64,000 bases of DNA from a virus (IMGVR_UViG_3300049444_000130), one strand, 5' to 3'. Shown: positions 44,941-64,000, counted from the stretch's first letter. Notes: a model not told the origin generated them from the letters alone. A program made the numbers and translations.

Positions 44941-44997
44941 GGTCGGGCTCCTTGCTGGTGAGTGAAGGGGGGTCTCGCTCCCCCCGGTGATGGTGCG

Positions 44998-48363: not shown

Positions 48364-48485
48364 GGGGCGTTGTGGCAGCCTCTGGCAGTGCTGCTGTGGC
48401 CGGATCGCAGAGCTTCTCCAGCCTTCGCAGTACGAATGACGGGGAGGGGAAAGATGGCGACGCGGCTCTCTGGAGGGACAACGAC

Positions 48486-48749: not shown

Positions 48750-48765
48750 GCAATAAGGCGGGGAA

Positions 48766-49059: not shown

Positions 49060-49214
49060 AACGGGAAGCAATTTCCCTCGGATGAGTGGCTTGCCTCGCC
49101 AGAACTGAAGAAGCTCAAGCGGGCGATTTCTGCGAGCGGGCGCGACAAGCTTCCCCTCGCTCGAAATAGGTATGACGGGGAGGGGAGGTGGCTACGCTGG
49201 TAAAGGAAGACGGG

Positions 49215-49745
49215 ATGAAAGACAACACGAGAAACCCCATGCTTTCAAGGAGAATCGCTATGACACGTGTATGGGTCATGGCCCTATTGGGAAGTGCTCT
49301 TGTCGGGGCGAGTATCGGACCAGGCGCGGTGCTGCACGCCTCGACCGTCCAGGGGACGGCGGTGCAAATCACGGGCTTGGACGATCTCAATGCGACGGTG
49401 GACCAACAGGCCCGCAAAGGCAGTGGCAAGATTCTGGCCACGGCGCTCGGCGTGGGCGGGCTGATCACGATCGGCGCCGGCCATCACTACCTGGGCGCCG
49501 CTGGCGTTGGGGCGGGCTTAGGCACGGCATTCATTCCCGGCATGATGTCGAGTGCCTTTGATGCGGCCCCTGCGGCCACCAGTCTCGCCGTCGAGCATGT
49601 CGCCTCCGGGGCCTGGTGGGCGCCGCTGACGGCCCTCCTGTACCCCCTGTTCCTGGCCCTGCGCCTGTTGCAAGACCCCGTGGTACTCGCGGCGGGCGTG
49701 CTGGCCCTGGTCCTGGTACGGACCCGAGGTGCCTATGTGGGCTGA
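49215..49745 (+). CDS. traA: conjugative pilin precursor (TraA/VirB2-like)
   Basis: Long leader, then two hydrophobic segments (ATALGVGGLITIGAG...; WWAPLTALLYPLFLALRLL). First gene of the tra operon. Confidence 0.45.
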   Translation: MKDNTRNPMLSRRIAMTRVWVMALLGSALVGASIGPGAVLHASTVQGTAVQITGLDDLNATVDQQARKGSGKILATALGVGGLITIGAGHHYLGAAGVGAGLGTAFIPGMMSSAFDAAPAATSLAVEHVASGAWWAPLTALLYPLFLALRLLQDPVVLAAGVLALVLVRTRGAYVG

Positions 49746-50010
49746 GTGCCCGCGCGTGTTGGATGTCCCGGTGAAAATCCTTGGCTTTGAAATAGAGGAT
49801 TTTGCCGCCGTGGCCGTGTCCCCCCTCTTCCTGAGCTTCGCCTGTGACGCCATGCTGAGCTTTGCCCTGGCTGGGGCGCTCGGTGCGGCGGTGTATCTGT
49901 CGAAGCGGGGACGTCCACAAGGCGCGTTGCTCCATACGCTCCACGCCCTCGAACTGCTGAAGCTCCCAGGGGTCCTGGGACCACGAGAGAAAAGGTATTC
50001 AGCGTGGTAG
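49729..50010 (+). CDS. traL: TraL (VirB3-like) T4SS protein
   Basis: KILGFEIEDFAAVAVSPLFL...YLSKRGRPQGALLHTLHALELLKLPGVLGP parallels F TraL ...MKRRKPGLHHLLHLLYRLGLG.... Confidence 0.55.
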   Translation: MPMWAECPRVLDVPVKILGFEIEDFAAVAVSPLFLSFACDAMLSFALAGALGAAVYLSKRGRPQGALLHTLHALELLKLPGVLGPREKRYSAW

Positions 50011-50603
50011 CACCTCCACAGACCCCGCATGACTTCTATGGCCATCTCCAGGCTCGCAATAGCCGCCTGGAAGCCACGTGCCTTGTCTTGAGCCTGGCCG
50101 TCTTGGCGCTCGGGGGGCTGATCGCCTGGTACGTTGTCCGCGGCGTGCCGGTGCACTTCGTTCCCCCCGGGGGGCCGGGCCTATCGCAGCCGGGAGTCAT
50201 CCCCGACGACAGTGCCACGGCCTTCACCAGTCGCTGGCTGGCCGCGCGCTATACGTTCACGCCCGCGACGGTCAAGACGATGCACAACGCCATGCTCTCA
50301 ACACTCCATCCTGTCCTGAGTCTCCCGTTCAAAGCCCAGGCGGAGCGGGAGGCGGTGCTGGTGAAAGAGGCGCAGCTCAGTAGCCAACTCGTGGTGGTCA
50401 GCACCAGCGTCAGCCGGCCTGGTGGCGTCGTGCTGGTGGACCTGGACGCACGGCGGACCATCTGGATCGGTGGGCAGCAGACGCGGGACGAGCCCGTGCA
50501 TGCGACCATCGCCGTCGCCCCCTGGGTGGTGCATGGGGATCCGAAAGGATTGGTGGTCTCTCGGGTGGTCATTACCCCGACGTTGAGCGTCTCGGGACCC
50601 TAG
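50004..50603 (+). CDS. traE: TraE (VirB5/8-like) T4SS protein
   Basis: N-terminal TM followed by a periplasmic domain. F-type gene order. Confidence 0.45.
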   Translation: MVAPPQTPHDFYGHLQARNSRLEATCLVLSLAVLALGGLIAWYVVRGVPVHFVPPGGPGLSQPGVIPDDSATAFTSRWLAARYTFTPATVKTMHNAMLSTLHPVLSLPFKAQAEREAVLVKEAQLSSQLVVVSTSVSRPGGVVLVDLDARRTIWIGGQQTRDEPVHATIAVAPWVVHGDPKGLVVSRVVITPTLSVSGP

Positions 50604-50627
50604 CCCGAGCGTATTGCTCTCGCCACT

Positions 50628-51365
50628 GTGCGAGGTATGGAGTGGTCGATGCGTGGTCCTGTGGTCGCTCTCCTTCTCCTGCTGGTCCTTGCTCCTCGCG
50701 CCTATGCGGCCCGTACGGCGTCCACGGACCAACCCGTGGCGGTGCGCCTCGAAGTCGCGCAACCCACTGCGATCGCCCTCCCTGAGCCGGTGGCCAGTGT
50801 GAGTGTGGGCATAGAGCCGACGCGTTTCAGTCTCGACTACGACGGCCCGTATCTCTTCCTGCTCCCCCTTGATCCCACGGTCAGCGGTCGCCTGTTTATC
50901 GTCGGGCAGTCCGGCAAGCTGTACACCGTGCTCTTTAAGGTGGCGTCCCCTGCCGATGATGTGGTCGCGCTGGTCACGTCCGTGCCAGGCCCAGCCAAAG
51001 CGCCACCCTTCTCGACCGCCTCCTTCCTGCGGGCCTTACGCACGGGCACGGTGATCCCTGGGCAAGGGACCGAGGACCTCCCCGCACCCACCATGCCCGA
51101 CAGTCGTCTCACACTCCTGAGCACGGCGACCGTGCGTCTGGGGGCACAGCTTGGCCAGGTCCTCACCGTGAAGAATACCGATCTGCAGCCCCTCCTGGTG
51201 GATGTCCGGGTCGGGCACCAGGACGTCCATCACGAGGCCGGCACGATCGCGCTGAACACCTGGGCCTTCCCCCCGCGCCTGACGATTAAAGCGGTGGCGA
51301 CGGAGCCGGAAACCCTGGCCCCGGGCACCGAAGGCCGGGTGTATCTGATCTACGAGAGGCGGTGA
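50628..51365 (+). CDS. traK: TraK (VirB9-like) T4SS protein
   Basis: Signal peptide. Position in the F-like order. Confidence 0.45.
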   Translation: MRGMEWSMRGPVVALLLLLVLAPRAYAARTASTDQPVAVRLEVAQPTAIALPEPVASVSVGIEPTRFSLDYDGPYLFLLPLDPTVSGRLFIVGQSGKLYTVLFKVASPADDVVALVTSVPGPAKAPPFSTASFLRALRTGTVIPGQGTEDLPAPTMPDSRLTLLSTATVRLGAQLGQVLTVKNTDLQPLLVDVRVGHQDVHHEAGTIALNTWAFPPRLTIKAVATEPETLAPGTEGRVYLIYERR

Positions 51366-52582
51366 CCATGCCCACGTTTCTGACGCAGCTCCTGGCCTCG
51401 ATCCGCCGCCGTCCGCTCATCGCCCTGCTAGGCAGTGGCCTGGTCGGCTGGCTGGTGTGGGCGCAGATGACCCCCACGCTGCCGGTGTCCCGGGCCGCCG
51501 TGGCCAAGACGCCAGCGATCCCCGGCCTGGGGATCGAGCGCGCGACGATGGAGAAGACGTTACTCGACGTGCAGAAAGATAATGCGCAGCTTCAGGAACG
51601 GCTCAAAGAGCAGGAGCGCACGGTGCACACCATGCAGCAAGCGCAGGCGGGGGATGCGCGGGAACGACAGGCCGCGGCGCAAGCGCAGGAACAAAAGCTC
51701 GAAGAGATTCTGAAGCGGGCGCAACAACTTCCCAAGCCCACGCCCCAGCCGGTGCGGGTGGTCACGAAAACCCCGCTCCCGGCTGCGAAGAGTGCGCCGG
51801 TGGCGGCAGACCCGCCGGTGCCCCACGACGCGGGGGTGAAGGTCCGCATTCTGCGCAGCGACAAAGCCGCCTCGTTCGCTGGCCCTCCGCCTGCCGCGAA
51901 CCGAGGGGACGTGGCGTATCTGCCGGCGGGCAGTTTTGCCCACGCCCGGGTGATAACCGGCGCCATTGCCACCAGTCGGGCCGGGGGCGCCCTTCCAGTG
52001 CTGTTCAGTGCCGTGGGACCCTTCCAGCCGCCGTGGCAGCTCCAAGGGCCAGGCGTCTTCCCCGTCCGCACCGAGATGCCGGCGCAAGGATGTTTCGTGT
52101 TGGGCAAGGCGCAGGCGGACCTCGGGGCCAACCGCGTGCTCGTGCAGGTGGACCTGCTGTCGTGTGTCATGCCGGACGCGGCGACGTTTGAAGTGCCGAT
52201 CCGGGGGTATGTGGTGGACGTCGATGGTTCTCTGGGCATGGTCGGGCGCCTCGAAACCCACGACAGTGCCGTGCTCGCCAAAACCTTTCTCACGAGCCTC
52301 CTGGCGGGCGCGGCAGAGAGTTTCAAGCTGGCCAAGCAGAGCAGTATCACCACGCCCCTCGGGGGGACGATCACGACACAACAGGGCCAATACGGCGAGG
52401 CCGCAGGCTTTGCGGCCCTGGCCAACGCCAGCGCACAACTGAGTCAATTCTACCTGAGCCAGGCCAGCCAACTGCTGCCCACGCTGGCGCTCGATGCTGG
52501 CCAAGCGGCGCGCGTGGTGCTCCAAGAAGGGGTGTCCTTTGACGGCTTTCCCCTGACCACCACTCTTGTGAAAGGACGCTAA
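51362..52582 (+). CDS. traB: TraB (VirB10-like) T4SS protein
   Basis: N-terminal TM, a Pro-rich coiled-coil linker and a C-terminal beta domain. Overlaps its neighbours by 4 nt. Confidence 0.5.
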   Translation: MTMPTFLTQLLASIRRRPLIALLGSGLVGWLVWAQMTPTLPVSRAAVAKTPAIPGLGIERATMEKTLLDVQKDNAQLQERLKEQERTVHTMQQAQAGDARERQAAAQAQEQKLEEILKRAQQLPKPTPQPVRVVTKTPLPAAKSAPVAADPPVPHDAGVKVRILRSDKAASFAGPPPAANRGDVAYLPAGSFAHARVITGAIATSRAGGALPVLFSAVGPFQPPWQLQGPGVFPVRTEMPAQGCFVLGKAQADLGANRVLVQVDLLSCVMPDAATFEVPIRGYVVDVDGSLGMVGRLETHDSAVLAKTFLTSLLAGAAESFKLAKQSSITTPLGGTITTQQGQYGEAAGFAALANASAQLSQFYLSQASQLLPTLALDAGQAARVVLQEGVSFDGFPLTTTLVKGR

Positions 52583-52584
52583 CG

Positions 52585-53025
52585 ATGCGCTACCGTTTTT
52601 TCCTCCTGCCTGTGGCCCTGGGCATACTCACCGCCTGTGCCCCGATGGGCCTCGGGCCGGAAGTCGATCTCACGACGCTCGCCACGCCTGATCCCCTGCC
52701 GCCGCCGCCTCGGGCGCTCCCGCCCTCCCTGCCAGGTCCCACCCCGGGCGCGGACCAGTGGCGCGCCTGGGTGCCACCCGAGGTCACGGCTCACGGCGAT
52801 ACGATCGACGGCCATTTCCTCCTGATCAGTCGCACGCCTCCCCCGCTCGAAACCCTCGAACCCAGTGCGCCGATCCCTCGCGCGCCCAAAGTGCACCTCA
52901 GTGCGAAGCCCAAGCCGCCTCCGCCGCTCGCCGTCCCGGCACCACCGCTCAGCCCAGCCCGCCCGCTGTCGGGCGGTCGCGCCTCCCCCGGCCCGCTGAC
53001 GCTCCCCACGCTGGGAGGGCCGTAA
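52585..53025 (+). CDS. traV: TraV-like lipoprotein
   Basis: MRYRFFLLPVALGILTAC lipobox. Pro-rich. Confidence 0.5.
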   Translation: MRYRFFLLPVALGILTACAPMGLGPEVDLTTLATPDPLPPPPRALPPSLPGPTPGADQWRAWVPPEVTAHGDTIDGHFLLISRTPPPLETLEPSAPIPRAPKVHLSAKPKPPPPLAVPAPPLSPARPLSGGRASPGPLTLPTLGGP

Positions 53026-53026
53026 C

Positions 53027-55576
53027 ATGGTGGCGTGGACCCGGCGGGATTTCGAGGATGCCGATCCTTTTAGTGCATTGCTGCCCCATGGCCTGATCCT
53101 CGAAGAGACGGAGGGCACGGTCTTACTGTCCACGCCACGCTGGGGGCGCCCCGGTCTCGCGGTCGGCGGTGCCTGGGCGGTGGAACCACGCAATATCGAG
53201 GTGTGTGATGAGGCGGTGTGTCTGGACATGGCCCGGGCGCATGACAGCCTGTTACGCAGTCTGCCCCTGGGCAGTGCCCTGCAGGTACTGATGACGATCG
53301 CCCCGACGTGTGAGGTCCCGGGCTGGGAACGTCTCCGCGCGTCTGTGCGTCCTGCTGGCTGGCTGGCGCCGATCCTGGACGCACAGGGGACAGCCCTGGC
53401 GCAAGGTTTCCCCCATCACGACGGCGCCGCGCCTGGCCGCTTGCGGACCATTCGTACCCTCGTCACCTTCCGTCTGCCGGTCGGCGCTCTGGCGCCCAGT
53501 ATTCCCTTACTCCTCGACGCGCTGCTGAGCCTCCCCAGTCGCCAGAGTCAGGGACTGGCGGGCCGTATGCGGGCGGCCCTCGCGGAGACCGTCACCCAGC
53601 TTGGGGGCTATCGGGCCGGGATTGCGGAGACCCTGCGCGCGGCAGGCCATCAGGTCACCGCCCTCGATGGGGCCGGAGTGGGGCAGGCCCTCGCGGCGGC
53701 GCTCGATCCCTTGGGCGATATCCCCAGTGCGCTGGATGATGCCGTGCCGCTCAAGGAACAGGTCCTGACGCACGACGCCACCCGGCAGACCGGGGGCTGG
53801 ACGTTTGGCCAGGGGGAGACGGCCCTGACGGCCCGGGTGCTCTCCCTGCATCGCGCGCCGCCGCGCACCTATCCGGGCATGCTCAGTGCCCCACGGGCTC
53901 CCGAGGGCGCGCAACCCCTGGCCCTGTGGGACGCCTGGCCGGGAGCACTGACCCTCTGCGTGAACGTGGCGGTGATTGATCAGGGCAAAGAGCGGGATCG
54001 GCTGCGGTGGAAGCGGCACTTTGCGGTGCTCCAGGGCAAGAGCCTGGAGAATGCGGCGATTAAAGACGAACTCGATGGCCTCTTGCGCACGTTCTTTGTG
54101 AGTGGGGGCCACCTCTTCTGGACCCGTATCCACTGCGTGCTGTGGGGCGCAAACCCGCCGCGCCTCGCCCGGGGGGTGCAGGATGTCATTCGGGTAGGCC
54201 GGCGGCTCGACCTGGAGTGGGTGCCCGAGCCCACCCTCGGGAGTACGTTGTTCCTGCAAACGCTCCCGCTCGGGTTTGATCCCACCTGGCCCAGCGAGAA
54301 GACGTTGCGCCGTGAACGGCGGATTCCCGGTATCCATGTGGCGAATCTGTTGCCGCTCTATGGCGGGTTTCGGGGGACACCGACGGCGAGCGTCCTCTAC
54401 TTGAATCAGCGCGGGGAGAGCGTGGGGTTTGATCCGTTCGACAATGTCACCAATCCCCATATGGTGATCACCGGGATGAGTGGCGCGGGGAAGAGCTTCA
54501 CCGTCGGCCATCTGGCGCAACAGGTGTTGCCGCTGGGCGCCTCGATGGTGATTCTCGATCGCTTACCCAGCTACCAGGACTTGTGCGCGGTGTGGGACGG
54601 CACGTATCTCGCCATGAACTTTCAGATGCCCTTGTGTTTTAATCCCTTCTATGGTCCGCTCGATGCCGAGCATGTGGCCTTCCTGACTGCCGTGCTGGCC
54701 GAACTCGCCAGCGGGGGCACCGAACGGTTGAACCGCGAGGCCCTGAATGTGTTAGCGGATGCCGTGGCGTACTTTGCGCAGCGTTGGGAGCCGGCACGGG
54801 GGGAGCCACGGCTGGGCGTGTTTGTCGAGGAGGTGCTCCAGGATGGCGCCTTCAGTGCCAAGGATGCCCTGGCACGGCGGCTTGGGAAGTCGTTGGCCCG
54901 GAAATTGAGCATGTTTCACTCGCGCGGACCGTTTGCGGGCTTCTTTGATGGCCCCAACCAGCTCGCCCTGCACCCCACGCTGACCGTGGTCGAACTCTCC
55001 CAGCTCCGGGATGCGCCCGACTTGCAAGGCGGGCTGCTCTTCTGCCTTTTGCACTTACTCAAGGTGCATTTTGCCGCGCCAGAACGCCTGCATCAACGCA
55101 AGTTTTTCGTGAGTGACGAGACCTGGAGCTTGCTCAAACACCCCGCGACGGCGGAAGTCATTGAAGAAATTGCCCGGACGTATCGCAAGCTGCGGACGAG
55201 TGCGATCTTCCTCAGCCAGTATGCGGAGGACTTCAGCTCACCGGCGGGTCGCGTCATTCGGAAAGGCAGCCCGGTCACCCTCTTCCTCCAACAGGAACAG
55301 GAAGAACTGGCGGAGCTGACGGCGTTGCTCAAACTCTCGCCCGCCGAGCACGCTCTGCTCACGCAGGTGGGGCGTCATGCGGGCTGGAGTACCATGTATC
55401 TGCGCCTCCCGGCTCACACAGGGGGGCTCGTGCGGCTGATCCCGGATCGGTATACGGCGCTGCTGCTCGGGCAAGATGACCAGACCCGACGGCGGCGGGA
55501 TGCCGCGCTCGCCCAGACGGGTGGCAATATGCGAGCGGCGATGGCCCTGCTGCTGGCGGAGGAGCGCGATGCGTGA
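53027..55576 (+). CDS. traC: TraC (VirB4-family) T4SS ATPase
   Basis: 849 aa. Walker A VITGMSGAGKSF. Size and position match F TraC. Confidence 0.75.
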   Translation: MVAWTRRDFEDADPFSALLPHGLILEETEGTVLLSTPRWGRPGLAVGGAWAVEPRNIEVCDEAVCLDMARAHDSLLRSLPLGSALQVLMTIAPTCEVPGWERLRASVRPAGWLAPILDAQGTALAQGFPHHDGAAPGRLRTIRTLVTFRLPVGALAPSIPLLLDALLSLPSRQSQGLAGRMRAALAETVTQLGGYRAGIAETLRAAGHQVTALDGAGVGQALAAALDPLGDIPSALDDAVPLKEQVLTHDATRQTGGWTFGQGETALTARVLSLHRAPPRTYPGMLSAPRAPEGAQPLALWDAWPGALTLCVNVAVIDQGKERDRLRWKRHFAVLQGKSLENAAIKDELDGLLRTFFVSGGHLFWTRIHCVLWGANPPRLARGVQDVIRVGRRLDLEWVPEPTLGSTLFLQTLPLGFDPTWPSEKTLRRERRIPGIHVANLLPLYGGFRGTPTASVLYLNQRGESVGFDPFDNVTNPHMVITGMSGAGKSFTVGHLAQQVLPLGASMVILDRLPSYQDLCAVWDGTYLAMNFQMPLCFNPFYGPLDAEHVAFLTAVLAELASGGTERLNREALNVLADAVAYFAQRWEPARGEPRLGVFVEEVLQDGAFSAKDALARRLGKSLARKLSMFHSRGPFAGFFDGPNQLALHPTLTVVELSQLRDAPDLQGGLLFCLLHLLKVHFAAPERLHQRKFFVSDETWSLLKHPATAEVIEEIARTYRKLRTSAIFLSQYAEDFSSPAGRVIRKGSPVTLFLQQEQEELAELTALLKLSPAEHALLTQVGRHAGWSTMYLRLPAHTGGLVRLIPDRYTALLLGQDDQTRRRRDAALAQTGGNMRAAMALLLAEERDA

Positions 55577-56042
55577 TCCGCAGCCCGTCAAGGCGTTGTT
55601 CCTGCTGACGGTCCTCGCGGGCGTCGGCCTGGCCGCGTGGTGGGTGATCGGCCTGACGGCCAGCGAGCGGCTGGGGCACCTGGCGGCAGTGATGGTCCGG
55701 GAACACGTACCGACCGTCCCTCCCGAGGGGCTGTGGGAGCAGGCGGTGTGGCTTGTGACGCACCGCCTGACGCAACTCCAGGGCATGACGGGGGTGCTGC
55801 TCGTGGCGGTGCTGGGGGGGAGCGGGGAAGGGATCGCACGACGGCGGGTGGATGTCCTCGGGGGGTTCCTCTTGCGCCTCTGGACGGTCGGGGTCGTGGG
55901 GCTGGCCCTGCTCCCGGGCGCGGTGGCGGGGTATCTCCTGGCACCCTGGCCGCTGCCCGCGCGGGCAGCGGCCGGTGGCCTAGCAGGGCTGGTGGCCGTG
56001 AGTAGCTATGGCGTGGGAGCGGGAAGGCCATATGTACCCTAA
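55569..56042 (+). CDS. polytopic membrane protein (tra operon)
   Basis: ATG overlaps the traC stop. Four or more hydrophobic helices. Confidence 0.4.
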   Translation: MRDPQPVKALFLLTVLAGVGLAAWWVIGLTASERLGHLAAVMVREHVPTVPPEGLWEQAVWLVTHRLTQLQGMTGVLLVAVLGGSGEGIARRRVDVLGGFLLRLWTVGVVGLALLPGAVAGYLLAPWPLPARAAAGGLAGLVAVSSYGVGAGRPYVP

Positions 56043-56063
56043 GAATGTGAGAAGGGAGGAACC

Positions 56064-56288
56064 ATGACGTTTGAAGGCAAACACTTTACGCCAGACGAAT
56101 GGGACGTCTCGCCCGAGCGCAAGAAGCTGATGAGACAGCTCTGGGGGGCTCGGGTGGGCATGGGGGTGTGCTGGACTGCTATGAGCGGGCTCCTGCTGCT
56201 CGGCCCACGGCCCTGGAAGGAAAAGATCGCCTTGTGGATACTGGGAACCGTCTTGATGGTGTTTCCGTGGGGAGGGTACCGTCGATGA
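56064..56288 (+). CDS. small membrane protein
   Basis: 74 aa with two TM helices. Confidence 0.35.
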   Translation: MTFEGKHFTPDEWDVSPERKKLMRQLWGARVGMGVCWTAMSGLLLLGPRPWKEKIALWILGTVLMVFPWGGYRR

Positions 56289-56545
56289 CCACCCGCGAAT
56301 TGCTTGTTGACATGATCCAAGACCCACGCGTGCTCACCGAACGCGAAATTGACACGCTCTGGCGGCTCATCAACAATCCGTTTCAAGCGTTTGCGCTCCT
56401 TGCCCTCGTGAATGATGCTGACATCCGGGCCATTCATTGGGTGGCCCAGGCGCTTATCTCTTGTCCTGAGTTGCGCCCCTTTGCCCAGGGCTTGCAGGAT
56501 GGCATCCAACGGTATCTGCAAGCGCGCGCTGGGGGCGCTTCTTAG
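56285..56545 (+). CDS. small hypothetical protein
   Basis: ATGA overlap with the upstream gene. 86 aa. Confidence 0.3.
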   Translation: MTTRELLVDMIQDPRVLTEREIDTLWRLINNPFQAFALLALVNDADIRAIHWVAQALISCPELRPFAQGLQDGIQRYLQARAGGAS

Positions 56546-56557
56546 CGAAAGGCATGT

Positions 56558-57823
56558 ATGGGTACGCAACGACACAGGGTTGGGTGGGTGGTCTTGTTCC
56601 TCTTGGTGCCTTCCCTCGTCTCCGCCGATCTCTTCGACACGGCGCGCCAGGCCATCCGCACCGATGTAGGTCGGGCCGATAGCAGTGGTGTGAGCGTGCG
56701 CGGCGGGGCGGCGATCACCTCGGGCGTCACGGCGACCAGCGTGCCGCTCTTGCGGGGACAGCTCACCACCGGCGGCGGCTGCGGCGCGTTCTCGTTTGCG
56801 ACCAGCCTCACGCAAGTTTTCGAGGAAGTGCCGGAGTTACTCGAGGCCCTCGCCCAACAACTCGCGAATAACCTCCCCATGTTGGTGTTGTCGTATGCCT
56901 GCCCGACGTGCGTCGATCTGGTGAAGCATGTGCAAGCCCTCTCGAATGTGCTCGTGAACGCCCGCTTTGCCCAGTGCCAGGCGATGACCGCGGCGGCGCA
57001 GTATGGGGGCATGCGATTACGCGGTGGGGAAATTAGCCAGTGCCTGTCCGATGAGGTGGCCGCCGGCCATGGGATCAGCGCCGCCTTACGGACCTGCAAT
57101 GGCGACGTGACCGACGTGCGCTCGCCGACGGGCCGCCGGGCGCCCCGGGTCGAGGTGCTGGCCGAGACCCTGGACGCGGCAGGGGCCTCGCCTGAAACGC
57201 GCACCCTGGCCAAGAGCCTGCTGGGGGAACTCACGATGAGCGCCAACGGGGGGCAGCTTGGGACGCAGCAAGACCGGCCCAGTGCTGGGATGCTCGCGCG
57301 CTATGAGGCGAACCGGCTGGCCGCCGACACGGCATTACGCACCGCGATCGAGGAGCTGAAGACGACGGGCCAGGTGTCTGATGCGACCTTACGCGCGGTC
57401 TCAGTGCCCGGCCAACCGCTCCCCCGGGCGGCCCTGGATGCCCTCGTCGCCCTCCAGCAGGACCCCACGCGCTACGAGACGCTCCTCGGCAAGCTGAGTA
57501 CCGGGCTGGCCGTGACCCAGCTCACCTGGGAATGTGACGATCTCAAGAGCCAGCTCGCCGGATCAATCGAGAGCAATCAGGAGCTGACAGACGAGCAACG
57601 GCGCCTCCTCGAACGACGCTTAGAAGCCTTGGAGCGGGATCTGAAGCAGGTCATTGCCAAGAAAGACATAGTTGAAAAACACCTGCAACCCGCCTTGGAC
57701 GCGCTCTTGCAGGAGTACCAGGCGGTGCAGAGTGTGGCAACCCAAGCCGGATTCCGGGCGCCGGCGAAAGTGGGACCTGTGATGCCCTATCGGACACAGG
57801 GGCCAGGCGGATACGGGCAATAA
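56558..57823 (+). CDS. traH: TraH-like T4SS protein
   Basis: Signal peptide. GGGCGAFSFATSL parallels F TraH AGCGGIDAYLGSFSF. C-terminal coiled coil. Confidence 0.5.
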   Translation: MGTQRHRVGWVVLFLLVPSLVSADLFDTARQAIRTDVGRADSSGVSVRGGAAITSGVTATSVPLLRGQLTTGGGCGAFSFATSLTQVFEEVPELLEALAQQLANNLPMLVLSYACPTCVDLVKHVQALSNVLVNARFAQCQAMTAAAQYGGMRLRGGEISQCLSDEVAAGHGISAALRTCNGDVTDVRSPTGRRAPRVEVLAETLDAAGASPETRTLAKSLLGELTMSANGGQLGTQQDRPSAGMLARYEANRLAADTALRTAIEELKTTGQVSDATLRAVSVPGQPLPRAALDALVALQQDPTRYETLLGKLSTGLAVTQLTWECDDLKSQLAGSIESNQELTDEQRRLLERRLEALERDLKQVIAKKDIVEKHLQPALDALLQEYQAVQSVATQAGFRAPAKVGPVMPYRTQGPGGYGQ

Positions 57824-57864
57824 CACGTTATATTTGAAGCATTTATGTTGAATTGAGTGGGGGA

Positions 57865-57942
57865 AAATGGTAGAATAACGGGGTAGGGAGGAGCTGTAAC
57901 TCCTCCCGCCCCTAAACACACGCCTCTGAGAAGGAGAAGCGC
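57865..57942 (+). repeat. conserved HNH-cassette leader: AT-rich box + 13-bp-stem hairpin GGGGTAGGGAGGAG..CTCCTCCCGCCCC + GAAGGAG RBS (copy 1)
   Basis: About 80% identical to 61641..61720. Confidence 0.7.
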
Positions 57943-58563
57943 ATGTCTGACGAGCACCATACCACAGATCCCGACAGTTCCCAGAGACAAAAGATCAGCA
58001 AGCGTCTCGAATATGGGCCAAGAAGAAAGAAATATGGAGAGGGGAAATATGTCGCCCCTCGTAGTGATTTGAAACCAGGCGCAATTACTCGAAGAGAATG
58101 GTTGCGTTTTATGAGTTATGTTGAGGAAGGAAATACCTGTCTCTGCACTCCTGAAATTCCTCATCGTCATTGGGTATGGATTGGTGTTCGAACGAGAGAA
58201 GGCTATGGGAGATTTAGCTGGAGAGGACGAAACTATCTGGCCCATCGGTTTGCCTATATTGCTTTACGTAGCGTCATCATAGATGGTCTGGAGCCAGACC
58301 ATCTATGCCGAATGACGTGCTGTTGTAATCCAGATTGTATTGACATCGTATCGCCGCAAGTCAATAAATTGCGCGGCAAAGGCATTGCGGCGATGTGTGC
58401 ACGAAAAACACATTGTCTTAAGGGGCATCTTTTAGAAGGGCAAAACCTTCGTGCATGCAAACTCAAAAAAGGGTGGCGCGCCTGTCGTATATGCTTTAAC
58501 GAATCCCATCGAATAGCCAAACACCACAAAAAACAGGCGAAGGAGGGGCTATCGACTTTTTAA
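57943..58563 (+). CDS. HNH homing endonuclease (HNH_3 family)
   Basis: WVWIGVRTREGYGRFSWRGRNYLAHRFAYIAL...GLEPDHLCRMTCCCNPDCIDIVSPQVN. About 45% GC. Paralogue of 61715..62512. Confidence 0.75.
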   Translation: MSDEHHTTDPDSSQRQKISKRLEYGPRRKKYGEGKYVAPRSDLKPGAITRREWLRFMSYVEEGNTCLCTPEIPHRHWVWIGVRTREGYGRFSWRGRNYLAHRFAYIALRSVIIDGLEPDHLCRMTCCCNPDCIDIVSPQVNKLRGKGIAAMCARKTHCLKGHLLEGQNLRACKLKKGWRACRICFNESHRIAKHHKKQAKEGLSTF

Positions 58564-58565
58564 CG

Positions 58566-60026
58566 ATGAGTCTCCCGGAAGCAAGCTATCTCTTCTTGGG
58601 TTTGGCTTTGCAGAGCATTGTTCGTGCCTCTTCATTGCGCCACATCCCGCGTGTCATGGTTCTCATATGGACCCTCGTAATGTTGTGGCGCGCAGGTGGG
58701 CGCGCAGGGGGGTATCGCGCGGTGGTCGGCTATGTGGGGACGTCGCTGGTGCTCTGTGTGCTCTTCTGGCCCGAGGCGGTCCCGTATGGCCGGCTTCTGG
58801 TCCAGACAACGGCCCCAGAGCAAGTCGCCTCCTATGCGGCCAGTCAAGATCCGGGTGCGGAGATCGTGACCGCGGCAGACGCGGGCATGGTCCCAGAGAT
58901 GCTCACGCAACCGGTGCCCATTCCCCCCGGGCTGCGGCTGCTCCTCCGGGCCGTGACCCAAACCCCGCTGGCCCTCGCCCGGGGAATCAATCTGCAAGCC
59001 CATCGCCTGTTCGCCAATCTCATGCCGCTCGCGTGGTTTCTGGATGTCAGGCTGCCCGCTGACGCGACGGCGGCGATTGCCGATTTTGTCCACGGGTGCT
59101 ACATCCCCACGCTCCTCGAAATGCTCAATGGCCAGCCCGGGCGCACCAGCGAGGACCTCCTGCCCTTTGGCGACTCCCCCATGCGGCAACAGTTGGCCCT
59201 CCATTCCGTCATCCCCGGCGCCCAGAGTGGCTTGACCATGATCAGCGGCCCCAATGCGCGGAATCTCACGCCGTGTCATGTGTACCTCAGTGGGTTGGAA
59301 CTGAATGCCCAGCGCTGGCTCAGTGAGCTGCGCTCTCCGCGGGGGGTGCCGTACCTCGAACTCTTTGCCACGGAGCTGGGCCTCGACGCCCCCACGCAAG
59401 CGGCGATCCTGCTCTACCGGGAAATGCTGCACGCCGCGGGCCCGGGCGTGCCAGCTCCCAGCCTGGCGGCGCAGTATGCCACGTTACGCGGGGGGAGCGT
59501 GCTGGGCAGTGTGGTGGAAGGGACGGCCCTGGGAGCCGTCGGGGGCTGGGCTGGGGCAGGTTTTGGCGCCCTGACGGGGTTGGTGCGTGGCGTCAATGGC
59601 GAATGGCAGCGCAGCCTGGAGGGCCTGACCTGGCTGGTGCGGGTGGCCATGGCGCTGGTGTGGTATAGCCCGTATATTTTAGGCATGGTGAACATGGTCC
59701 TCGTGGGGCTGTTCCCCTTTCTGCTGCTCTGGGCGCTCCTGCCGGGGACGCAATTCGAGCCGTTGGCGCATTATTTCATGGCGCTGCTGTTTACGAGTTC
59801 GGCGCCCTTGTGGTTGGCGCTGGTGGACCAGGCTGCGCGCCTCGGCGCGCAGCAACCCCCTGCGGTCGAGGGCGCCATGGGGGCGGTCTGGAGCGTGTTT
59901 ATCACCACGGGGTTGTGGAGTGCCTCACTCACAGCGCTGGGGCTGCTGCTGATCCCATTGGTGTTAGCAATTTTGTACTTTGCTGCCTTTCGTGCGATTG
60001 GGCATTTGTGGCGAGGAGGAGTGTAG
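58566..60026 (+). CDS. polytopic membrane protein, TraG N-terminal-domain-like (mating-pair stabilisation)
   Basis: 486 aa with multiple TM helices flanking a periplasmic domain. Position after traH, as in F. Confidence 0.35.
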   Translation: MSLPEASYLFLGLALQSIVRASSLRHIPRVMVLIWTLVMLWRAGGRAGGYRAVVGYVGTSLVLCVLFWPEAVPYGRLLVQTTAPEQVASYAASQDPGAEIVTAADAGMVPEMLTQPVPIPPGLRLLLRAVTQTPLALARGINLQAHRLFANLMPLAWFLDVRLPADATAAIADFVHGCYIPTLLEMLNGQPGRTSEDLLPFGDSPMRQQLALHSVIPGAQSGLTMISGPNARNLTPCHVYLSGLELNAQRWLSELRSPRGVPYLELFATELGLDAPTQAAILLYREMLHAAGPGVPAPSLAAQYATLRGGSVLGSVVEGTALGAVGGWAGAGFGALTGLVRGVNGEWQRSLEGLTWLVRVAMALVWYSPYILGMVNMVLVGLFPFLLLWALLPGTQFEPLAHYFMALLFTSSAPLWLALVDQAARLGAQQPPAVEGAMGAVWSVFITTGLWSASLTALGLLLIPLVLAILYFAAFRAIGHLWRGGV

Positions 60027-60027
60027 G

Positions 60028-60219
60028 ATGCATCCTGTGGTGGCGAAGGTGGTGTTATGCAGTCCGATGCTGGCCCTCTTTGGGCTGGTGCTCGGGCTCT
60101 CGTGTCTCTTTCTGCGGACGTGCCCGGCCTGTAAGCGGCGGATTGCCCGCACGGCGACGAAGTGTCATTGGTGTCATACGTTGCAACCAGTGAGGGCACA
60201 GCGGGATCATGCCTTTTAA
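60028..60219 (+). CDS. small membrane protein with CxxC..CxxC zinc ribbon
   Basis: MHPVVAKVVLCSPMLALFGLVLGLSCLFLRTCPACKRRIARTATKCHWCH. Confidence 0.3.
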   Translation: MHPVVAKVVLCSPMLALFGLVLGLSCLFLRTCPACKRRIARTATKCHWCHTLQPVRAQRDHAF

Positions 60220-61519
60220 CCGTTGGCGAGGGCTCGTGCTCGGGCTTCTCCTAGCGCCGGGCTGCTGGGCACACGCGGGATCGGTGGAATTGCACTGGGA
60301 GTATGACCTCGCCTGGCAACGTGATACCACGTATCGGCTGCGCATCGTCACGCTCCAGGGCGGACGGCCCACGGCCAGCGAGCGCACCCTCGACCCCTTC
60401 ACCCCGCAGCAGTGTGCGCAGTCGCCTGACCCGGCCCGGACCCCCGACACGCTCTGTGGGACGGTGTGCCTGGAGCCGGGCGACTACACGCTGAGCCTCA
60501 CAGCGGTGCACCGAAGGCAGCAGAGTGCCCCAAGTAATCTGCTCGACGTGGACCTGACATCGAGCACCTCCTGTGTCCCAGGTGGGAGCGCCGCTCCGGT
60601 CTCTGCATCTCCCCCTGCGCCTCCCCGTCCGACCTCGTCAGCGGGGTCGGCAGGCGGCGGCCTGGCGGTGGGCGGGGCCGCGGCGGCGCTTCTAGCGGCG
60701 CAGCAACAGATACCCGGGCTGTTCGGGCTCCCGAATCTTGGCTGTGTGCAGTGGCTGCCCGTCGAACCGTGCGTCTGCCCCCCCTTCCTCCCGTGCACGC
60801 GCGTGACGTATATGGAACCGGCCTATATTGTCGAGGTCGTGCCCAAGCCAGGGGAGACCGTGGTGCCCCTCCTGGGCGGGTTGCTGCGGGAGGCGCTGGC
60901 GACGGTCGGCAGCCCGGCGCTCGGGGGCGGCGGCGCGGCAAACACGTCGGGGCCAACGAATCTCCATTACAACGAGGTGCATGTGTATGATTTTCCGAAC
61001 ATCTTCGGGGGCCCCTGTACGGGCTGTCTGCCCGGTGGTGGGCTCGCGCTGCACTATGCCAGTGAGCTGGACGCGGTGAGTTGGCGCACGGCGGCCATCA
61101 CGCCCACGCCCGTCGATCTCCTTCAGCAGATAGGGGTGTGGGGGCCGCTCTACCCCCGGGGAGGGAAAGTCATCCACGGGAGTGGGGTCATTGCCGGCGC
61201 ACTGGCCGCCGTGCGCGGCATGGATATCGCGCACCAGCCGATTGGCAGCCCGCCCCATGTGGATGCCCATGTGGTGCCGCTGCCGGCCCTCGGGCGGGCG
61301 GGCTGCCTGCAACTGGCCTATCCGAAGCAACTGCCCTGCATGGACCCGGGGGGGCCTCCGCCCCTCTGGGAAACCGGGACCACGAGCCTGAATGGCCGCT
61401 ATCTCTATATCGTCTGGCAGCGGCGCACGTGCTGTGTCCAGGTGCCGACCTGTGGCATTACCCTGCCAGGGATTGGGGGCTATGGGCAAAACCTGTGCGC
61501 GTTGTCCCTCGTACCGTAA
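60209..61519 (+). CDS. traU: TraU-family T4SS protein with N-terminal extension
   Basis: CVCPPFLP...TYMEPAYIVEVV parallels F TraU ICPAPPP...INYWEP. EVHVYDFPNIFGGP parallels HVHWYKYPLTYWLN. GCLPGGGLALHYASELD parallels GCLEGGDMDIAYLSEID. GRYLYIVWQRRTCC parallels FGYLMWRKRNCV. Confidence 0.7.
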   Translation: MPFNRWRGLVLGLLLAPGCWAHAGSVELHWEYDLAWQRDTTYRLRIVTLQGGRPTASERTLDPFTPQQCAQSPDPARTPDTLCGTVCLEPGDYTLSLTAVHRRQQSAPSNLLDVDLTSSTSCVPGGSAAPVSASPPAPPRPTSSAGSAGGGLAVGGAAAALLAAQQQIPGLFGLPNLGCVQWLPVEPCVCPPFLPCTRVTYMEPAYIVEVVPKPGETVVPLLGGLLREALATVGSPALGGGGAANTSGPTNLHYNEVHVYDFPNIFGGPCTGCLPGGGLALHYASELDAVSWRTAAITPTPVDLLQQIGVWGPLYPRGGKVIHGSGVIAGALAAVRGMDIAHQPIGSPPHVDAHVVPLPALGRAGCLQLAYPKQLPCMDPGGPPPLWETGTTSLNGRYLYIVWQRRTCCVQVPTCGITLPGIGGYGQNLCALSLVP

Positions 61520-61529
61520 GGAGAGGTGT

Positions 61530-61607
61530 ATGAAATGGCTTCCCCTCGTCCTCTGTCTGGCCGGGGGGCATGGCCAGAACACGTGTGCCTTGCCACCAAT
61601 ACCTTAA
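61530..61607 (+). pseudogene. 25-codon remnant of a signal-peptide gene start (MKWLPLVLCLAGG...), displaced by HNH cassette insertion
   Basis: An AAGGAGAGG RBS and ATGAAATGGCT.., similar to the start of 62509 (ATGAAGTGGCT..). Confidence 0.4.
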
Positions 61608-61640
61608 AGAATCAATAGGTTATATTGTGTAAAAACGGAC

Positions 61641-61714
61641 GAAATGGTATACTAACGGGGTAGGAAGGAGCTGAAACTCCCCCTACCCCTGAACACACGC
61701 AGCTACGAAGGAGC
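61641..61714 (+). repeat. conserved HNH-cassette leader (copy 2): hairpin GGGGTAGGAAGGAG..CTCCCCCTACCCC + GAAGGAG
   Basis: Paralogous to 57865..57942. Confidence 0.7.
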
Positions 61715-62512
61715 ATGCGCATGTCTAAAAGAAGACTTATCACAGATCCCTATTTCTCACAAACTGTTCTGTCTGGGAAAGGGCGGTTGCGTAGCCCAAA
61801 CAGAGCGGCGCCTGGGCAAGGAATGTACAAAGCACCGCGGAGCGACTTGCGGCCGGGCGCTGTCACACGACGGGAGTGGCTACGTTTTATGAGCTACATA
61901 CAAGAAGGGGAACAGTGTCTGTGTACTCCGGGCGTTTTTCATCGCCACTGGATATGGGGAGGCTGGCGGACCAAGCAGGGTTATGGGAGCTTCAGGTGGC
62001 GAGGAAGAATGTATCTCGCCCACCGTTTTGCGTGTATCGCTATGGGAAGGTCCATACCAAACGGACAAGAACCTGACCACCTCTGCCGGGTTACATATTG
62101 TTGTAACCCGGCTTGTATCGACGTCGTTCTTCAATCTGTCAACATTCTACGAGGCAGTGGTATCTGTGCGTGCCATGCACGCCAAACACATTGCAAATGG
62201 GGACATCTTTTAGAGGGAGACAATCTTCTTCCTGCCCCATGGATAGCGGAAGGGCATCGCATATGTCGTGCGTGTGCAAAAAAATCTAAGAGCGAACAAT
62301 GGGCACACAGAAGGGCGACTGTTGGCTCAGGTTCAATATGTCTTGTCATCGCTCAAAAAACGCATTGTAAGCGTGGGCACCTCTTCACAGAAGAGAATCT
62401 TGATCCTTACCTTCTCAAGCATGGTATTCGCAAGTGCCGTCGATGTAGAAATCTACAAATACAACGAGCCAAACAACGCAAAAAGCTCCAAGAAATGGAG
62501 GGCTCTGTATGA
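61715..62512 (+). CDS. HNH homing endonuclease (HNH_3 family), paralogue of 57943..58563
   Basis: HWIWGGWRTKQGYGSFRWRGRMYLAHRFACIAMGRSIPNGQEPDHLCRVTYCCNPACIDVV. Low GC. The stop overlaps the next ATG. Confidence 0.75.
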   Translation: MRMSKRRLITDPYFSQTVLSGKGRLRSPNRAAPGQGMYKAPRSDLRPGAVTRREWLRFMSYIQEGEQCLCTPGVFHRHWIWGGWRTKQGYGSFRWRGRMYLAHRFACIAMGRSIPNGQEPDHLCRVTYCCNPACIDVVLQSVNILRGSGICACHARQTHCKWGHLLEGDNLLPAPWIAEGHRICRACAKKSKSEQWAHRRATVGSGSICLVIAQKTHCKRGHLFTEENLDPYLLKHGIRKCRRCRNLQIQRAKQRKKLQEMEGSV

Positions 62513-62835
62513 AGTGGCTCTGTATGTTCCTCGCCTTTCCCTTCTTGGTCTCTGCCCAAGAAATGCGCTTTCTTGATTGTGGACAGGTCAATTTTTTTGG
62601 AGAAGCTTGTCCTTCACAATCACCGCCGCGCCTTCTCCCACCCCCGGCCCCAGAGCCCCTATTCCCTCGTGAGTCAATGGCGCCTGACACTCCGAGTCTT
62701 ATGATGAACCTCTTGGAGCAACCAACCCCAGAAAATGCACAAAAGTTCCTGGCCTGGCAGGCGCAGCGCACGACGCGCATCCAGGAGGTGCAGCAGCTCC
62801 TCCACACCCTGACCCTGCAGAGGAAAGCGCCGTAG
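62509..62835 (+). CDS. secreted hypothetical protein (tra operon; TrbC/TraW-like position)
   Basis: Signal peptide MKWLCMFLAFPFLVSAQ. Confidence 0.35.
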   Translation: MKWLCMFLAFPFLVSAQEMRFLDCGQVNFFGEACPSQSPPRLLPPPAPEPLFPRESMAPDTPSLMMNLLEQPTPENAQKFLAWQAQRTTRIQEVQQLLHTLTLQRKAP

Positions 62836-62837
62836 CC

Positions 62838-63230
62838 ATGAGCACCAGACACGAGAAAAGCACGCCGTATCGGTGGGCATCCTGGCAGCAGTACCTCATG
62901 GGCCATGCCCTTCTCCCGCCCGACGCAGCCCAGCGGGACTACACCATGTTGCGGGTCCGGCCCAGCCTGCGACCGGCCTTCTTTGTGGTGCTCGATCTCC
63001 TGAGTGCCCGGGTGCATCTCGAAGATCGGGCACTCCCCCTCCTCGCAGACACACCACCCGGGCCAGGGCTGGCGGAGGCGCAGGCCGCCTGGCTCGCGTG
63101 GCAGCAGTGGACGCGGCGCCTGGCCGCGTATCTCGACCGCCTCGCCACAGGCCGGGAGGGTACGCTCCCCCCGGTCCCTGACGTGCTGACGACGCTGCTG
63201 GCAGACGGGAAGGGCGAGGATGGCGCGTAA
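62838..63230 (+). CDS. hypothetical protein
   Basis: 130 aa. Confidence 0.3.
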   Translation: MSTRHEKSTPYRWASWQQYLMGHALLPPDAAQRDYTMLRVRPSLRPAFFVVLDLLSARVHLEDRALPLLADTPPGPGLAEAQAAWLAWQQWTRRLAAYLDRLATGREGTLPPVPDVLTTLLADGKGEDGA

Positions 63231-64000
63231 GTGGCCGGTCAGGGAGGCGGCCCTGCTCACCGTGGCGGGGAGTGCCTGTCTCGGGGTAGTCCTGGCGCCG
63301 ACAAGTCCGTACCTCGCGCCCGAGCTGCGCCCCCTCGCCCTCACGCTCAGTACCGCGTGGGTCGTGTGGCGGCTGCTGGCCCTCGACCGGGTGGTGGCGC
63401 AGCGCCGCGCCTGGCACCACGCCACGGCGTGGGTCGTGACACCCGCCGCGCTGGCGTGCGCCACCCTCTCCCCCTGGTGGCCGGACCAGCTGGGCCGTGA
63501 GACGCCTACCCACGAAGGGTTGCTGTTGGGACGAGCGTTCCCCTGGCACGCGGGCCACACGCAGGTCTTGGAAACCGCCCTGGCCACGGACGGCGCCTTA
63601 CCCATTGCCGAGGACAACCGGGGGGGCCATCCTGCGCTCCATGCCGTGGGGACGGATACCGAGCAGGCCCTGGTCGTCCCCTGGAGTGAGTTGGGGGGGC
63701 ATGTGCTGGTCACGGGCACGACCCGGAGCGGCAAGACGCGGCTGCTCGAAGTGCTGGCGTCGGAAGCGATCCGAGGACCCGGCGCCGTGGTCGTGCTTGA
63801 TCCCAAGGGCGAGCGGGAGTTGCTGGCCCGCTGTGCCGCCGAGGCCCACCGCCAGGGCCGCCCCTTTGCCCTGATCACCCCCGCCTTTCCCGAGCAGTCT
63901 GCCACGCTCAACGTGCTCGACACTGCCACGACGCCGGCGGAAGTGTCCGCCCGCATCCGGGCACTGATGCCGAGCGGTGGGGCCCGGGGAAGCGATCCGT
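63220..64000 (+). CDS. traD: type IV coupling protein (TraD/VirD4-like), 5' partial; runs off the window
   Basis: Not in the ORF track because no stop is reached. Two N-terminal TM helices, then Walker A VLVTGTTRSGKT and VVVLDPKGE. Confidence 0.6.
   Translation, partial: MARKWPVREAALLTVAGSACLGVVLAPTSPYLAPELRPLALTLSTAWVVWRLLALDRVVAQRRAWHHATAWVVTPAALACATLSPWWPDQLGRETPTHEGLLLGRAFPWHAGHTQVLETALATDGALPIAEDNRGGHPALHAVGTDTEQALVVPWSELGGHVLVTGTTRSGKTRLLEVLASEAIRGPGAVVVLDPKGERELLARCAAEAHRQGRPFALITPAFPEQSATLNVLDTATTPAEVSARIRALMPSGGARGSDP

Follow-up and report, generated by a model that had tools for sequence, protein, structure and literature searches.

Homing endonuclease genes are seen as a force that shapes the genomes of phages and organelles, and the diversity of conjugative elements is attributed to cargo hotspots and inter-element recombination. 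Lambdoid phages also carry morons, single extra genes of deviant composition which, equipped with their own promoter and their own terminator, lie between genes that are adjacent in relatives. The free-standing endonuclease genes of T-even phages (seg and mob) are characterised by distant cleavage sites, by co-conversion, and by promoters and RNA hairpins of their own (PMC2988022). In the SXT/R391 hotspots, insertions are confined to intergenic sites of a conserved F-type tra backbone, their left boundaries falling straight after a tra stop codon, and they do not disturb core functions (PMC2791158). Here we describe two HNH nuclease genes, HNH1 and HNH2, which together with their leaders occupy two junctions of a conjugative type IV secretion system (T4SS) operon in an uncultured soil mobile element, represented by the 64,000-nucleotide stretch IMGVR_UViG_3300049444_000130 (the whole of which is called the window below). 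An original prediction had read the two genes as homing-endonuclease cassettes inserted between tra genes, and comparison with related operons bears out the insertion: both junctions are empty in related operons, and in other, diverged ones the same two are filled by homologous HNH cassettes. What is new is the recurrence of one nuclease subfamily and one conserved leader at defined T4SS junctions, and the predicted sense/antisense design of that leader. We judge it fairly probable that each cassette is a free-standing selfish gene of the homing-endonuclease type, specialised on one intergenic junction of the F/G-type T4SS operon family.

HNH cassettes at two junctions of a conjugation operon

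A profile of TraU homologues retrieved 34 related metagenome loci and look-ups of HNH homologues added more, giving at least 40 related T4SS operons, in which the window proteins were placed by tblastn. The first junction (site 1), between the TraH-like gene and the gene that follows it, is empty in ten loci (L010, L012, L014, L022, L023, L024, L026, L027, L035 and L042) and is occupied by an HNH homologue in four, namely the window, L017, L044 and L045. The second (site 2), between TraU and the gene for a small secreted protein, is empty in at least 20 loci and occupied in five (the window, L012, L023, which is the same as L043, L042 and L050). The flanking genes of empty alleles are separated by 15-25 nt at site 1 and by -31 to +53 nt at site 2. 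These alleles, at least ten at site 1 and at least 20 at site 2, are free of scars, the stop codon adjoining the ribosome-binding site (RBS); at an empty site 1 the TraH stop is directly followed by the RBS and start of the next gene, as in tag/GAGGAAGAG ATG GAC TTT CTT GTG (MDFLVLSLPEA), where the slash marks the boundary.

Comparison with these insert-free operons fixes the exact insertion point at both sites, between a stop codon and the next RBS. The boundaries of cassette 1 were taken from an alignment of its junction with the ten empty and three other occupied alleles. Within the 3' end of HNH1 the window reads GCG AAG/GAGGGGCT ATC GAC TTT TTA ACG ATG AGT CTC CCG, which aligns with empty alleles such as those of L022 (tag/GAGGGGTTATCGACTTC) and L012 (taa/GACGCTATCGACTTTTTA); since the native junction thus sits inside the end of the HNH gene, the inserted DNA stops at the base before the native RBS (Table 1). 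In L045 the HNH gene has a TAG stop exactly at the native boundary; the boundary codon in the window and in L017 is AAG, and the open reading frame (ORF) is eight codons longer than in L045. At site 2 the leader starts straight after the TraU stop in all five occupied alleles. The alignments therefore support the view that both HNH genes were inserted behind the stop codon of an upstream tra gene and ahead of the next RBS. In several alleles of the gene after TraH (L012, 2768-2790; L022, 7751-7775; the window, 58551), ATC replaces ATG at the conserved (M/I)DFL start, with a good RBS 5-9 nt upstream; translation may initiate at this AUC, or the change may represent a variant target site tied to HNH cassettes.

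HNH1 and HNH2 are indeed paralogues, with 111 of 189 residues identical (59%, E 2e-75) and 37% identity at third codon positions. The predicted coordinates of HNH1 stood and the start of HNH2 had to be moved, the start that aligns with HNH1 being ATG 61721 (MSKRRL) and not 61715; the protein read from 61721 is identical to database protein P0002. Both genes run to the next start codon, as had been claimed, the HNH1 stop (58561-58563) lying 2 nt ahead of ATG 58566 (TAAcgATG) and the HNH2 stop overlapping ATG 62509 as ATGA, and both are low in G+C content (GC), at 0.46 and 0.50 against 0.64-0.70 in the flanks. The family label HNH_3 (PF13392) was less secure. HNH1 has no Pfam match at E<0.01, and HNH2 scores 21.9 bits, under the gathering threshold of 24.8; 12 of 14 members of their family do match (best E 2.9e-10), and because these close relatives match, the two proteins are taken to be divergent members of the superfamily. 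Residues D119-H120, N141 and R144 do not vary within the family, nor do the Cys/His ligands, and an AlphaFold2 model (mean predicted local distance difference test score 83) has a predicted fold nearest to the homing endonucleases I-HmuI and I-PpoI. Judged by residue conservation, the two proteins are His-Me finger nucleases whose catalytic and zinc residues are retained. The extra zinc-ribbon repeat of HNH2 is common to the site-2 homologues of L023, L042 and L050. The subfamily, which is marked by a PGAITRREWLRF motif at the N-terminus, was found in none of 185,579 reference genomes and is only weakly represented in phage and plasmid collections; in PLSDB even weak HNH relatives occur in just 12 plasmids, none of the 12 conjugative.

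The HNH genes carry a foreign composition wherever they are found, with a GC at third codon positions (GC3) of 0.36-0.47 in every host, in flanks of GC 0.54-0.70 and among tra genes with a GC3 of about 0.78. Their proteins cluster by site: HNH1 with L017, and L044 with L045, at site 1; HNH2 with L023 and L042 at site 2. None of 100 bootstraps of the TraH tree unites the four occupied alleles in a clade, and the window clusters with empty alleles. L044 and L045 are 59% identical in HNH against 40% in TraH, and L023 and L042 are 63% identical in HNH against 43% in TraU. On these trees and identities the history of the HNH gene differs from that of the backbone, and the occupied operons appear polyphyletic; the cassettes are, on the alleles compared, sporadic among relatives, and their lineages follow sites and not backbones. 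We infer that they have spread by endonuclease-driven homing. Distant members of the HNH family (L007 and L047-L049) lie within phage-like strings of small genes, which suggests that the tra-associated clade derived from such strings.

Further signs of mobility lie in the flanks. The gene after HNH1 has a GC of 0.48-0.53 over its first ~120 nt (58566-58685) and of 0.75 thereafter. Over residues 1-40 its product matches that of the occupied L017 allele at 34 of 40 positions and that of the empty L010 allele at 28 of 40; over residues 41-80 the corresponding matches are 17 of 40 and 28 of 40. Before HNH2 lies an apparent recombination relic, which was compared with the TraU C-termini and next-gene N-termini of 28 loci. 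Its chimeric ORF opens with the first 13 codons of the resident downstream gene (MKWLPLVLCLAGG), preceded by their own RBS, and closes with the last 12 codons and the stop of a foreign TraU (HGQNTCALPPIP), the two halves being fused at a GGGGGG run; for comparison, the resident TraU ends in GGYGQNLCALSLVP and that of L023 in GGHGQNMCMLP. The gene after HNH2 starts with a low-GC tract of ~240 nt (0.52, 0.43, 0.68 and 0.45 in 60-nt bins) and is higher in GC beyond. Our reading is that cassette 2 arrived with the 3' end of a donor TraU and a donor allele of the downstream gene, and that its left crossover was illegitimate. The low-GC, L017-like tract and the relic would both fit co-transfer of flanks, no close donor/recipient pair being present among the loci; on the TraH side, co-conversion was looked for and no clear mosaic signal was found. 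Such scars fit free-standing endonucleases that cut a neighbouring gene, with co-conversion to follow, as is described for the seg and mob genes of T4 (PMC2988022). One other contig of the element, L001, has a frame-shifting 22-bp gap (equivalent to 58606-58627) in the 5' part of the gene after HNH1 and a second gap, of 9 bp, at 56361-56369.

The cassette leader and a predicted antisense RNA

The leaders of the two genes (57865-57936 and 61642-61713) are 83% identical over 72 nt, as against the 37% found at third codon positions of the genes, so the leader appears to be under constraint of its own. The repeat is the only such pair in the window, where 0 chance matches are expected; a search of IMG/VR viral contigs with the leader pattern gave no match, and in 46 loci the pattern of second hairpin and Shine-Dalgarno sequence occurs exclusively upstream of HNH genes. 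The conserved leader of the original prediction, and its GAAGGAG in both copies, are confirmed, and its other parts need some revision. The AT-rich box is present and amounts in both leaders to a sigma-70-like promoter motif (TTGAAT-17-TGgTAGAAT and TTGTGT-17-TGgTATACT). The 13-bp stem of hairpin 1 (HP1) holds for cassette 1, the counterpart in cassette 2 having 12 bp with a small internal loop; the 81-nt leader of cassette 1 folds at -33.7 kcal/mol (z -3.9 against shuffled sequence), and the leader of cassette 2 has a z of -4.7 on the same comparison. As a whole, the hairpin leader is more aptly described as a control region with two hairpins and a sense/antisense design.

One architecture is common to eight tra-linked cassettes and consists of an AT-rich region with TAnnnT, HP1, a CACA(C/T)(G/A)C box, hairpin 2 (HP2) and ATG. 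The TAnnnT, often in the form TGnTAnnnT, stands 2-3 nt before HP1 in all eight leader-bearing cassettes; the HP1 stem is 12-15 bp long, and the HP2 loop holds most of the Shine-Dalgarno sequence, with the AUG partly paired. The sequence of HP1 varies and its pairing is kept: across nine leaders, Watson-Crick pairs fill 109 of 118 cells, and both sides have changed at 11 of the 13 positions shared. HP2 also shows compensatory changes (UCU/AGA vs GCU/AGC, and A-U vs G-C in L012). MAFFT alignments of the leaders were out of structural register, and these pair counts come from a hand-registered alignment, not from covariance-model tools. Two roles for HP1 were considered and rejected: that of an intrinsic terminator, as no U-run follows it on either strand, and that of an anti-Shine-Dalgarno sequence in its 3' arm (CUCCUCCC), as the arm sequence is not conserved in L012, L007 and L023.

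The opposite strand was searched because non-canonical cells of HP1 were asymmetric (seven A.C against one G.T) and because minus-strand folds were the stronger, being as stable as or stabler than the plus-strand folds in eight of nine hairpins. An opposite-strand TAnnnT is fixed at +14 to +19 of the coding sequence (codons 5-7) in six of eight cassettes and is shifted by 1 nt in one more, and in five of the eight a TG lies one base upstream of it. The amino acids specified by the codons beneath this box differ from cassette to cassette; at other offsets within 120 nt the score never exceeds 4/8, and the box is absent in leaderless relatives. Both -10-like boxes are thus conserved at fixed positions, the antisense side being judged on the -10 alone. 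In cassette 1 the predicted product would be an RNA of ~76 nt (57949 to 57874, -), whose sequence would be the complement of both hairpins as well as of the Shine-Dalgarno sequence and AUG.

Two Rfam families resemble this arrangement. The FinP model (RF00107) spans exactly 57874-57949 (-) with 31.2 bits, under its gathering threshold of 45, and the R1162 model (RF00043) matches both window leaders (+) with 41.9 and 32.1 bits, under its gathering threshold of 55. At gathering threshold Rfam gave no match on eight sources, and neither model matches the orthologous leaders of L017 and L012. Because those two leaders go unmatched, and with the scores below threshold, homology to R1162 or FinP was rejected; we regard the resemblance as similarity of design.

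The competitor to this view of the leader, to which we give a little less than an even chance, is that HP1 works only through the sense RNA or the DNA itself, whether by stabilising the 5' end, by terminating (without a U-run) or insulating against tra transcripts from upstream, or by binding the nuclease, and that no antisense RNA is made. The fixed spacing of 2-3 nt between -10 box and hairpin would suit this, as would the similar spacers of hairpin, CACAC and Shine-Dalgarno sequence between unrelated small genes at 44.9-46.7 kb, the presence in L007 of a hairpin without promoter boxes, and Rfam matches that are sub-threshold and not reproduced in L017 or L012. What it leaves unexplained is an opposite-strand TAnnnT that persists at a fixed position, often after TG, across non-conserved codons, and a stem in which sense-strand G.U pairs make up just one of 118 cells and whose folds are stronger on the minus strand. 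Several observations nevertheless count against the promoter-and-antisense reading of the leader: the excess of A.C over G.T cells is not significant (p 0.07); the opposite-strand box of cassette 2 is degenerate (TAAGTC); HP1 is without a following U-run; and position 57876, the last base of the HNH1 -10 box, is G in six other contigs of the element (TAGAAG), where it is the single SNP (single-nucleotide polymorphism) common to all six over 2-14 kb. To these must be added the site-1 HNH gene of L045, which has neither promoter nor hairpin leader and reads TAG GAGGTGTTC ATG (6718-7330); this form may be an operon-integrated or an ancestral cassette.

On the minus strand at 44950-46900, four copies of a 54-nt intergenic repeat (45155-46610) lie between small genes. 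Each comprises a GGGGGAG-loop-CTCCCCC hairpin, a CACAC box, GAGGAG and ATG, a layout like that of the HNH leaders (hairpin, CA-box, Shine-Dalgarno sequence) minus the AT-rich promoter box.

Table 1. Positions of the cassettes, their leaders and scars, and neighbouring features in the window
Feature	Position	Strand	Details
HNH1	57943..58563	+	206 aa; His-Me finger (HNH) nuclease with Cys/His zinc ribbon
Cassette 1, inserted DNA	57824..58542	+	base after TraH stop to base before native RBS GAGGGGCT; GC 0.46
Native junction kept within HNH1 3' end	58543..58565	+	RBS GAGGGGCT and old start region ATC GAC TTT TTA ACG
Sense promoter-like site, cassette 1	57848..57876	+	TTGAAT-17-TGgTAGAAT; -10 ends 3 nt before HP1
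HP1, cassette 1	57880..57912	+	13-bp stem, 6-nt loop, one bulged A
ACACACGC box and HP2, cassette 1	57916..57945	+	HP2 57921-57941; Shine-Dalgarno GAAGGAG 57930-57936, partly in loop; start codon 57943
Predicted cis-antisense unit, cassette 1	57874..57961	-	-10 box TATGGT (57961-57956), TG ahead
HNH2	61721..62512	+	263 aa; paralogue; second C-terminal THC..CRxC zinc-ribbon repeat
Cassette 2 leader	61608..61720	+	promoter-like motif 61625-61653 (TTGTGT 61625-61630; TGgTATACT, -10 at 61648-61653); HP1 61657-61689; Shine-Dalgarno GAAGGAG 61707-61713
Putative recombination relic before HNH2	61520..61607	+	resident RBS and 26-codon chimeric ORF 61530-61607
TraH-like gene, site 1 upstream flank	56558..57823	+	weak matches to Pfam TraH and NCBIfam TIGR03755
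Membrane protein, site 1 downstream flank	58566..60026	+	486 aa; label 'TraG-N-like' unverified
TraU, site 2 upstream flank	60209..61519	+	Pfam TraU, E 2e-18
Secreted protein (MKWL...), site 2 downstream flank	62509..62835	+	108 aa; after TraU in >25 related loci
TraC (F-type)			TIGR02746, E 1e-74
TrbI/TraB			E 8e-21
TraE			E 1e-7
T4SS operon	47000-64000		
Phage tail module	482-21000		left 21 kb of window; tape measure protein 482-3352; tail fibre J-like protein 10541-13156; beta-helix fibres
Bro-N protein and tyrosine integrase	41363-43982		41-44 kb
HNH3 upstream relic of downstream gene	27168-27016	-	GC-rich, 50 codons
HNH4	37341-38087	-	out of frame within 806-aa N6/N4 DNA methyltransferase ORF 36010-38430

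Homing, cargo or ancestry

If the cassettes are homing genes of this kind, the nuclease would cut a cassette-less junction when two related elements share a cell, probably in the 5' part of the downstream gene, and repair would copy the cassette together with adjacent DNA; one side might sometimes be resolved by microhomology, leaving relics. The operon would be spared, as the next gene either retains its RBS or would be translationally coupled to the HNH stop (TAAcgATG, ATGA). Expression of HNH would come from the cassette's own promoter, with the sense transcript beginning inside HP1 and so carrying a 5'-terminal hairpin, and HP2 would partly occlude the Shine-Dalgarno sequence and AUG. From the convergent promoter in codons 5-7, a ~76-nt antisense RNA would extend across the whole leader and keep the nuclease low in established hosts.

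Some of the evidence sits less easily with homing. The trees are neighbour-joining trees of few sequences. No near-identical cassette was seen in two different backbones among the loci compared, so that all detected transfer events would be old. The cassettes of the window and L017 are 53% identical and their flanks 57-68%, a similar divergence which also fits long vertical co-inheritance, and the higher identity of HNH than of backbone could stem from slower evolution of HNH and not from transfer. HNH1 itself, as noted, falls short of the Pfam threshold.

It is unlikely, in our view, that the cassettes are moron-like cargo, that is, single genes with their own promoter put into operon hotspots by the general recombination of the element and not by the HNH nuclease; yet this is a live rival, because the same or neighbouring tra spacers of relatives hold unrelated low-GC genes, so that these junctions are general insertion points. 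The private promoter and deviant composition are moron features, and the hotspots of SXT/R391 begin right after tra stop codons and hold varied cargo (PMC2791158). General recombination would not, however, lead one to expect one HNH subfamily to recur at the same two junctions in backbones only 40-57% identical, in site-specific lineages, nor relics and co-transferred tracts on the very side where a free-standing endonuclease would cut; and no terminator-like site closes either cassette. On this cargo reading the HNH protein would be of service to the element, perhaps by excluding rivals, in defence or in the processing of DNA. That the HNH genes are ancestral members of the operon, lost many times, is very improbable: the cassettes of the window and L017 differ about as much as their flanks do, and the cassettes are neatly coupled to downstream genes, but against this stand the foreign GC3 in all hosts, the scar-free empty alleles at both sites, the polyphyly of occupied alleles, the relics of displaced resident sequence and the distant family members in phage-like strings of small genes. 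The original prediction had named ancestral genes of normal GC, with no empty-site alleles, as the finding that would tell against insertion; what was found are empty sites and a foreign GC.

The homing reading remains our preferred one. A bolder extension of it, which we consider unlikely, is a conjugation-coupled gene drive, in which HNH homes between T4SS operons, is silenced in established hosts by a FinP-like cis-antisense RNA, and fires mainly after transfer into a cell with a cassette-less relative; if this were true, adjacent tra alleles would be dragged along and the mating apparatus reshaped. More generally, a nuclease that targets T4SS junctions would extend the logic of 'intronless homing' and marker exclusion to conjugative elements and would explain how mosaic tra operons could arise. 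The conserved leader would be a compact example of how a potentially toxic selfish nuclease is restrained, and the empty and occupied alleles define candidate target sites.

The host element and comparison with known systems

The cassettes reside in an F/G-type T4SS operon of distant relationship, with homologues of TraC/VirB4, TraB/TrbI, TraE, TraH and TraU in one operon; the relationship is called distant because most NCBIfam scores fall under the family cut-offs. TraC has ~25% identity to the TraC of any sequenced plasmid, and the TraH-like gene is 40-72% identical to its counterpart in related loci. The 486-aa protein after HNH1 has no family match in Pfam or NCBIfam, neither of which backs the label TraG-N-like it had been given. 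The same element was found in six metagenome contigs at >99.7% identity; a nucleotide search of the region against 72,556 plasmids (PLSDB) gave zero matches, and neither relatives of TraU nor relatives of the HNH family were found in 185,579 reference genomes. A phage tail module, a Bro-N protein gene and an integrase gene share the window with the T4SS, which may therefore be part of a phage-conjugative hybrid, or the neighbour of a prophage (two adjacent elements). Locus L007 likewise joins beta-helix, Mom and methylase genes with a VirB-type T4SS. The claim that such cassettes are unusual in a conjugation operon needs qualifying, as the window holds, besides the tail module, three further phage-type HNH genes, and as intergenic hotspots straight behind tra stop codons were already known from SXT/R391 elements (PMC2791158).

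All five HNH genes of the window, as counted in the original prediction, match PHROG HNH families, which are phage HNH families; the ORF called at 28113 is over-extended N-terminally. HNH3 (26268-26906, -) is unrelated to HNH1 and HNH2 and has the same layout (25864-27168): beyond the upstream relic, it has a promoter-like site (TTGAAA-16-TGaTATAAT), a 9-bp hairpin and an ACAC box, and its stop overlaps, as ATGA, a full, lower-GC copy of the downstream gene (25864-26271). By this layout the scar appears to be of the same type as that at HNH2. HNH4 lies within a methyltransferase frame that stays free of stops across its 747 nt, where none of 5000 synonymous shuffles was stop-free (mean 9.2 stops). 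In methyltransferase homologues free of the insert (P0060-P0063), the insertion point falls between 'LWQRRYGH' and 'LLQGDSR'; a diverged copy (P0056/L046, 3001-5250; HNH 43% identical) is also stop-free, again with 0 of 5000 shuffles so, and in P0080 an HNH_3 domain lies in frame elsewhere in this methyltransferase family. HNH4 has the appearance of a homing gene that read-through in a different frame makes tolerable, neither intron nor intein being involved, and a literature search found no precedent for an HNH gene nested out of frame in an open methyltransferase ORF.

Other low-GC genes in tra spacers of relatives were seen in L013 (1808-2215), L015, L040, L014 (5401-6300, 9081-9815 and 11727-12203), L022 (5185-6480), L012 (463-1509) and L023 (8922-9164). 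At site 2 the product is a 135-aa unknown, and a gene located between those for the 486-aa protein and TraU encodes a DPPY methylase; the others encode an ORF6N protein, 299-aa and 431-aa proteins with repeated 'YGGRGI..DR.D..Y.P.N..W' modules, and 80-aa and 158-aa unknowns. Elsewhere in the window, four tandem 15-nt units (CGGTTGATCCGACTT) at 32083-32142, in a lower-GC stretch, may be iterons or partition sites, and two tandem 42-nt units lie at 34172-34255 inside the gene 33716-34852.

Among known systems, FinP/traJ of F-like plasmids and R1162 (RSF1010) resemble the leader in having a two-hairpin 5' leader whose second hairpin contains or adjoins the Shine-Dalgarno sequence, a promoter in convergent orientation, and an antisense RNA of ~75 nt ending after a long hairpin, the latter two predicted here; the models match over their full length. 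The regulated gene differs, being here a nuclease and not traJ or repA. Morons share with the cassettes a promoter-like site, a deviant composition and insertion between genes adjacent in relatives, and differ from them in being closed by a terminator; the cargo of the cassettes, moreover, is a nuclease able to explain its own mobility. The closest precedent for the niche is given by the SXT/R391 hotspots, whose left boundary also follows a tra stop codon. Their cargo is multi-gene and heterogeneous and is attributed to inter-element recombination, whereas here one nuclease family and one leader are found at given junctions, in a backbone with only ~25% identity to TraC proteins already described.

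In function, the nearest class is that of the T-even seg and mob genes. Those genes lie among phage replication or metabolism genes, whereas the host locus here is a T4SS/conjugation operon; the cassette leader, in addition, has a predicted convergent antisense promoter, and the cassettes are known here from sequence alone. Both are intergenic single-gene nuclease cassettes, sporadic in distribution and residing in neither intron nor intein, and both have a private promoter (predicted in the cassettes) with RNA hairpins near the RBS; the flank scars of the cassettes would fit the co-conversion described for seg and mob. MobE, like I-HmuI, belongs to the same HNH/His-Me superfamily as the cassette proteins; the cleavage site of the cassettes would be expected to lie away from the insertion site.

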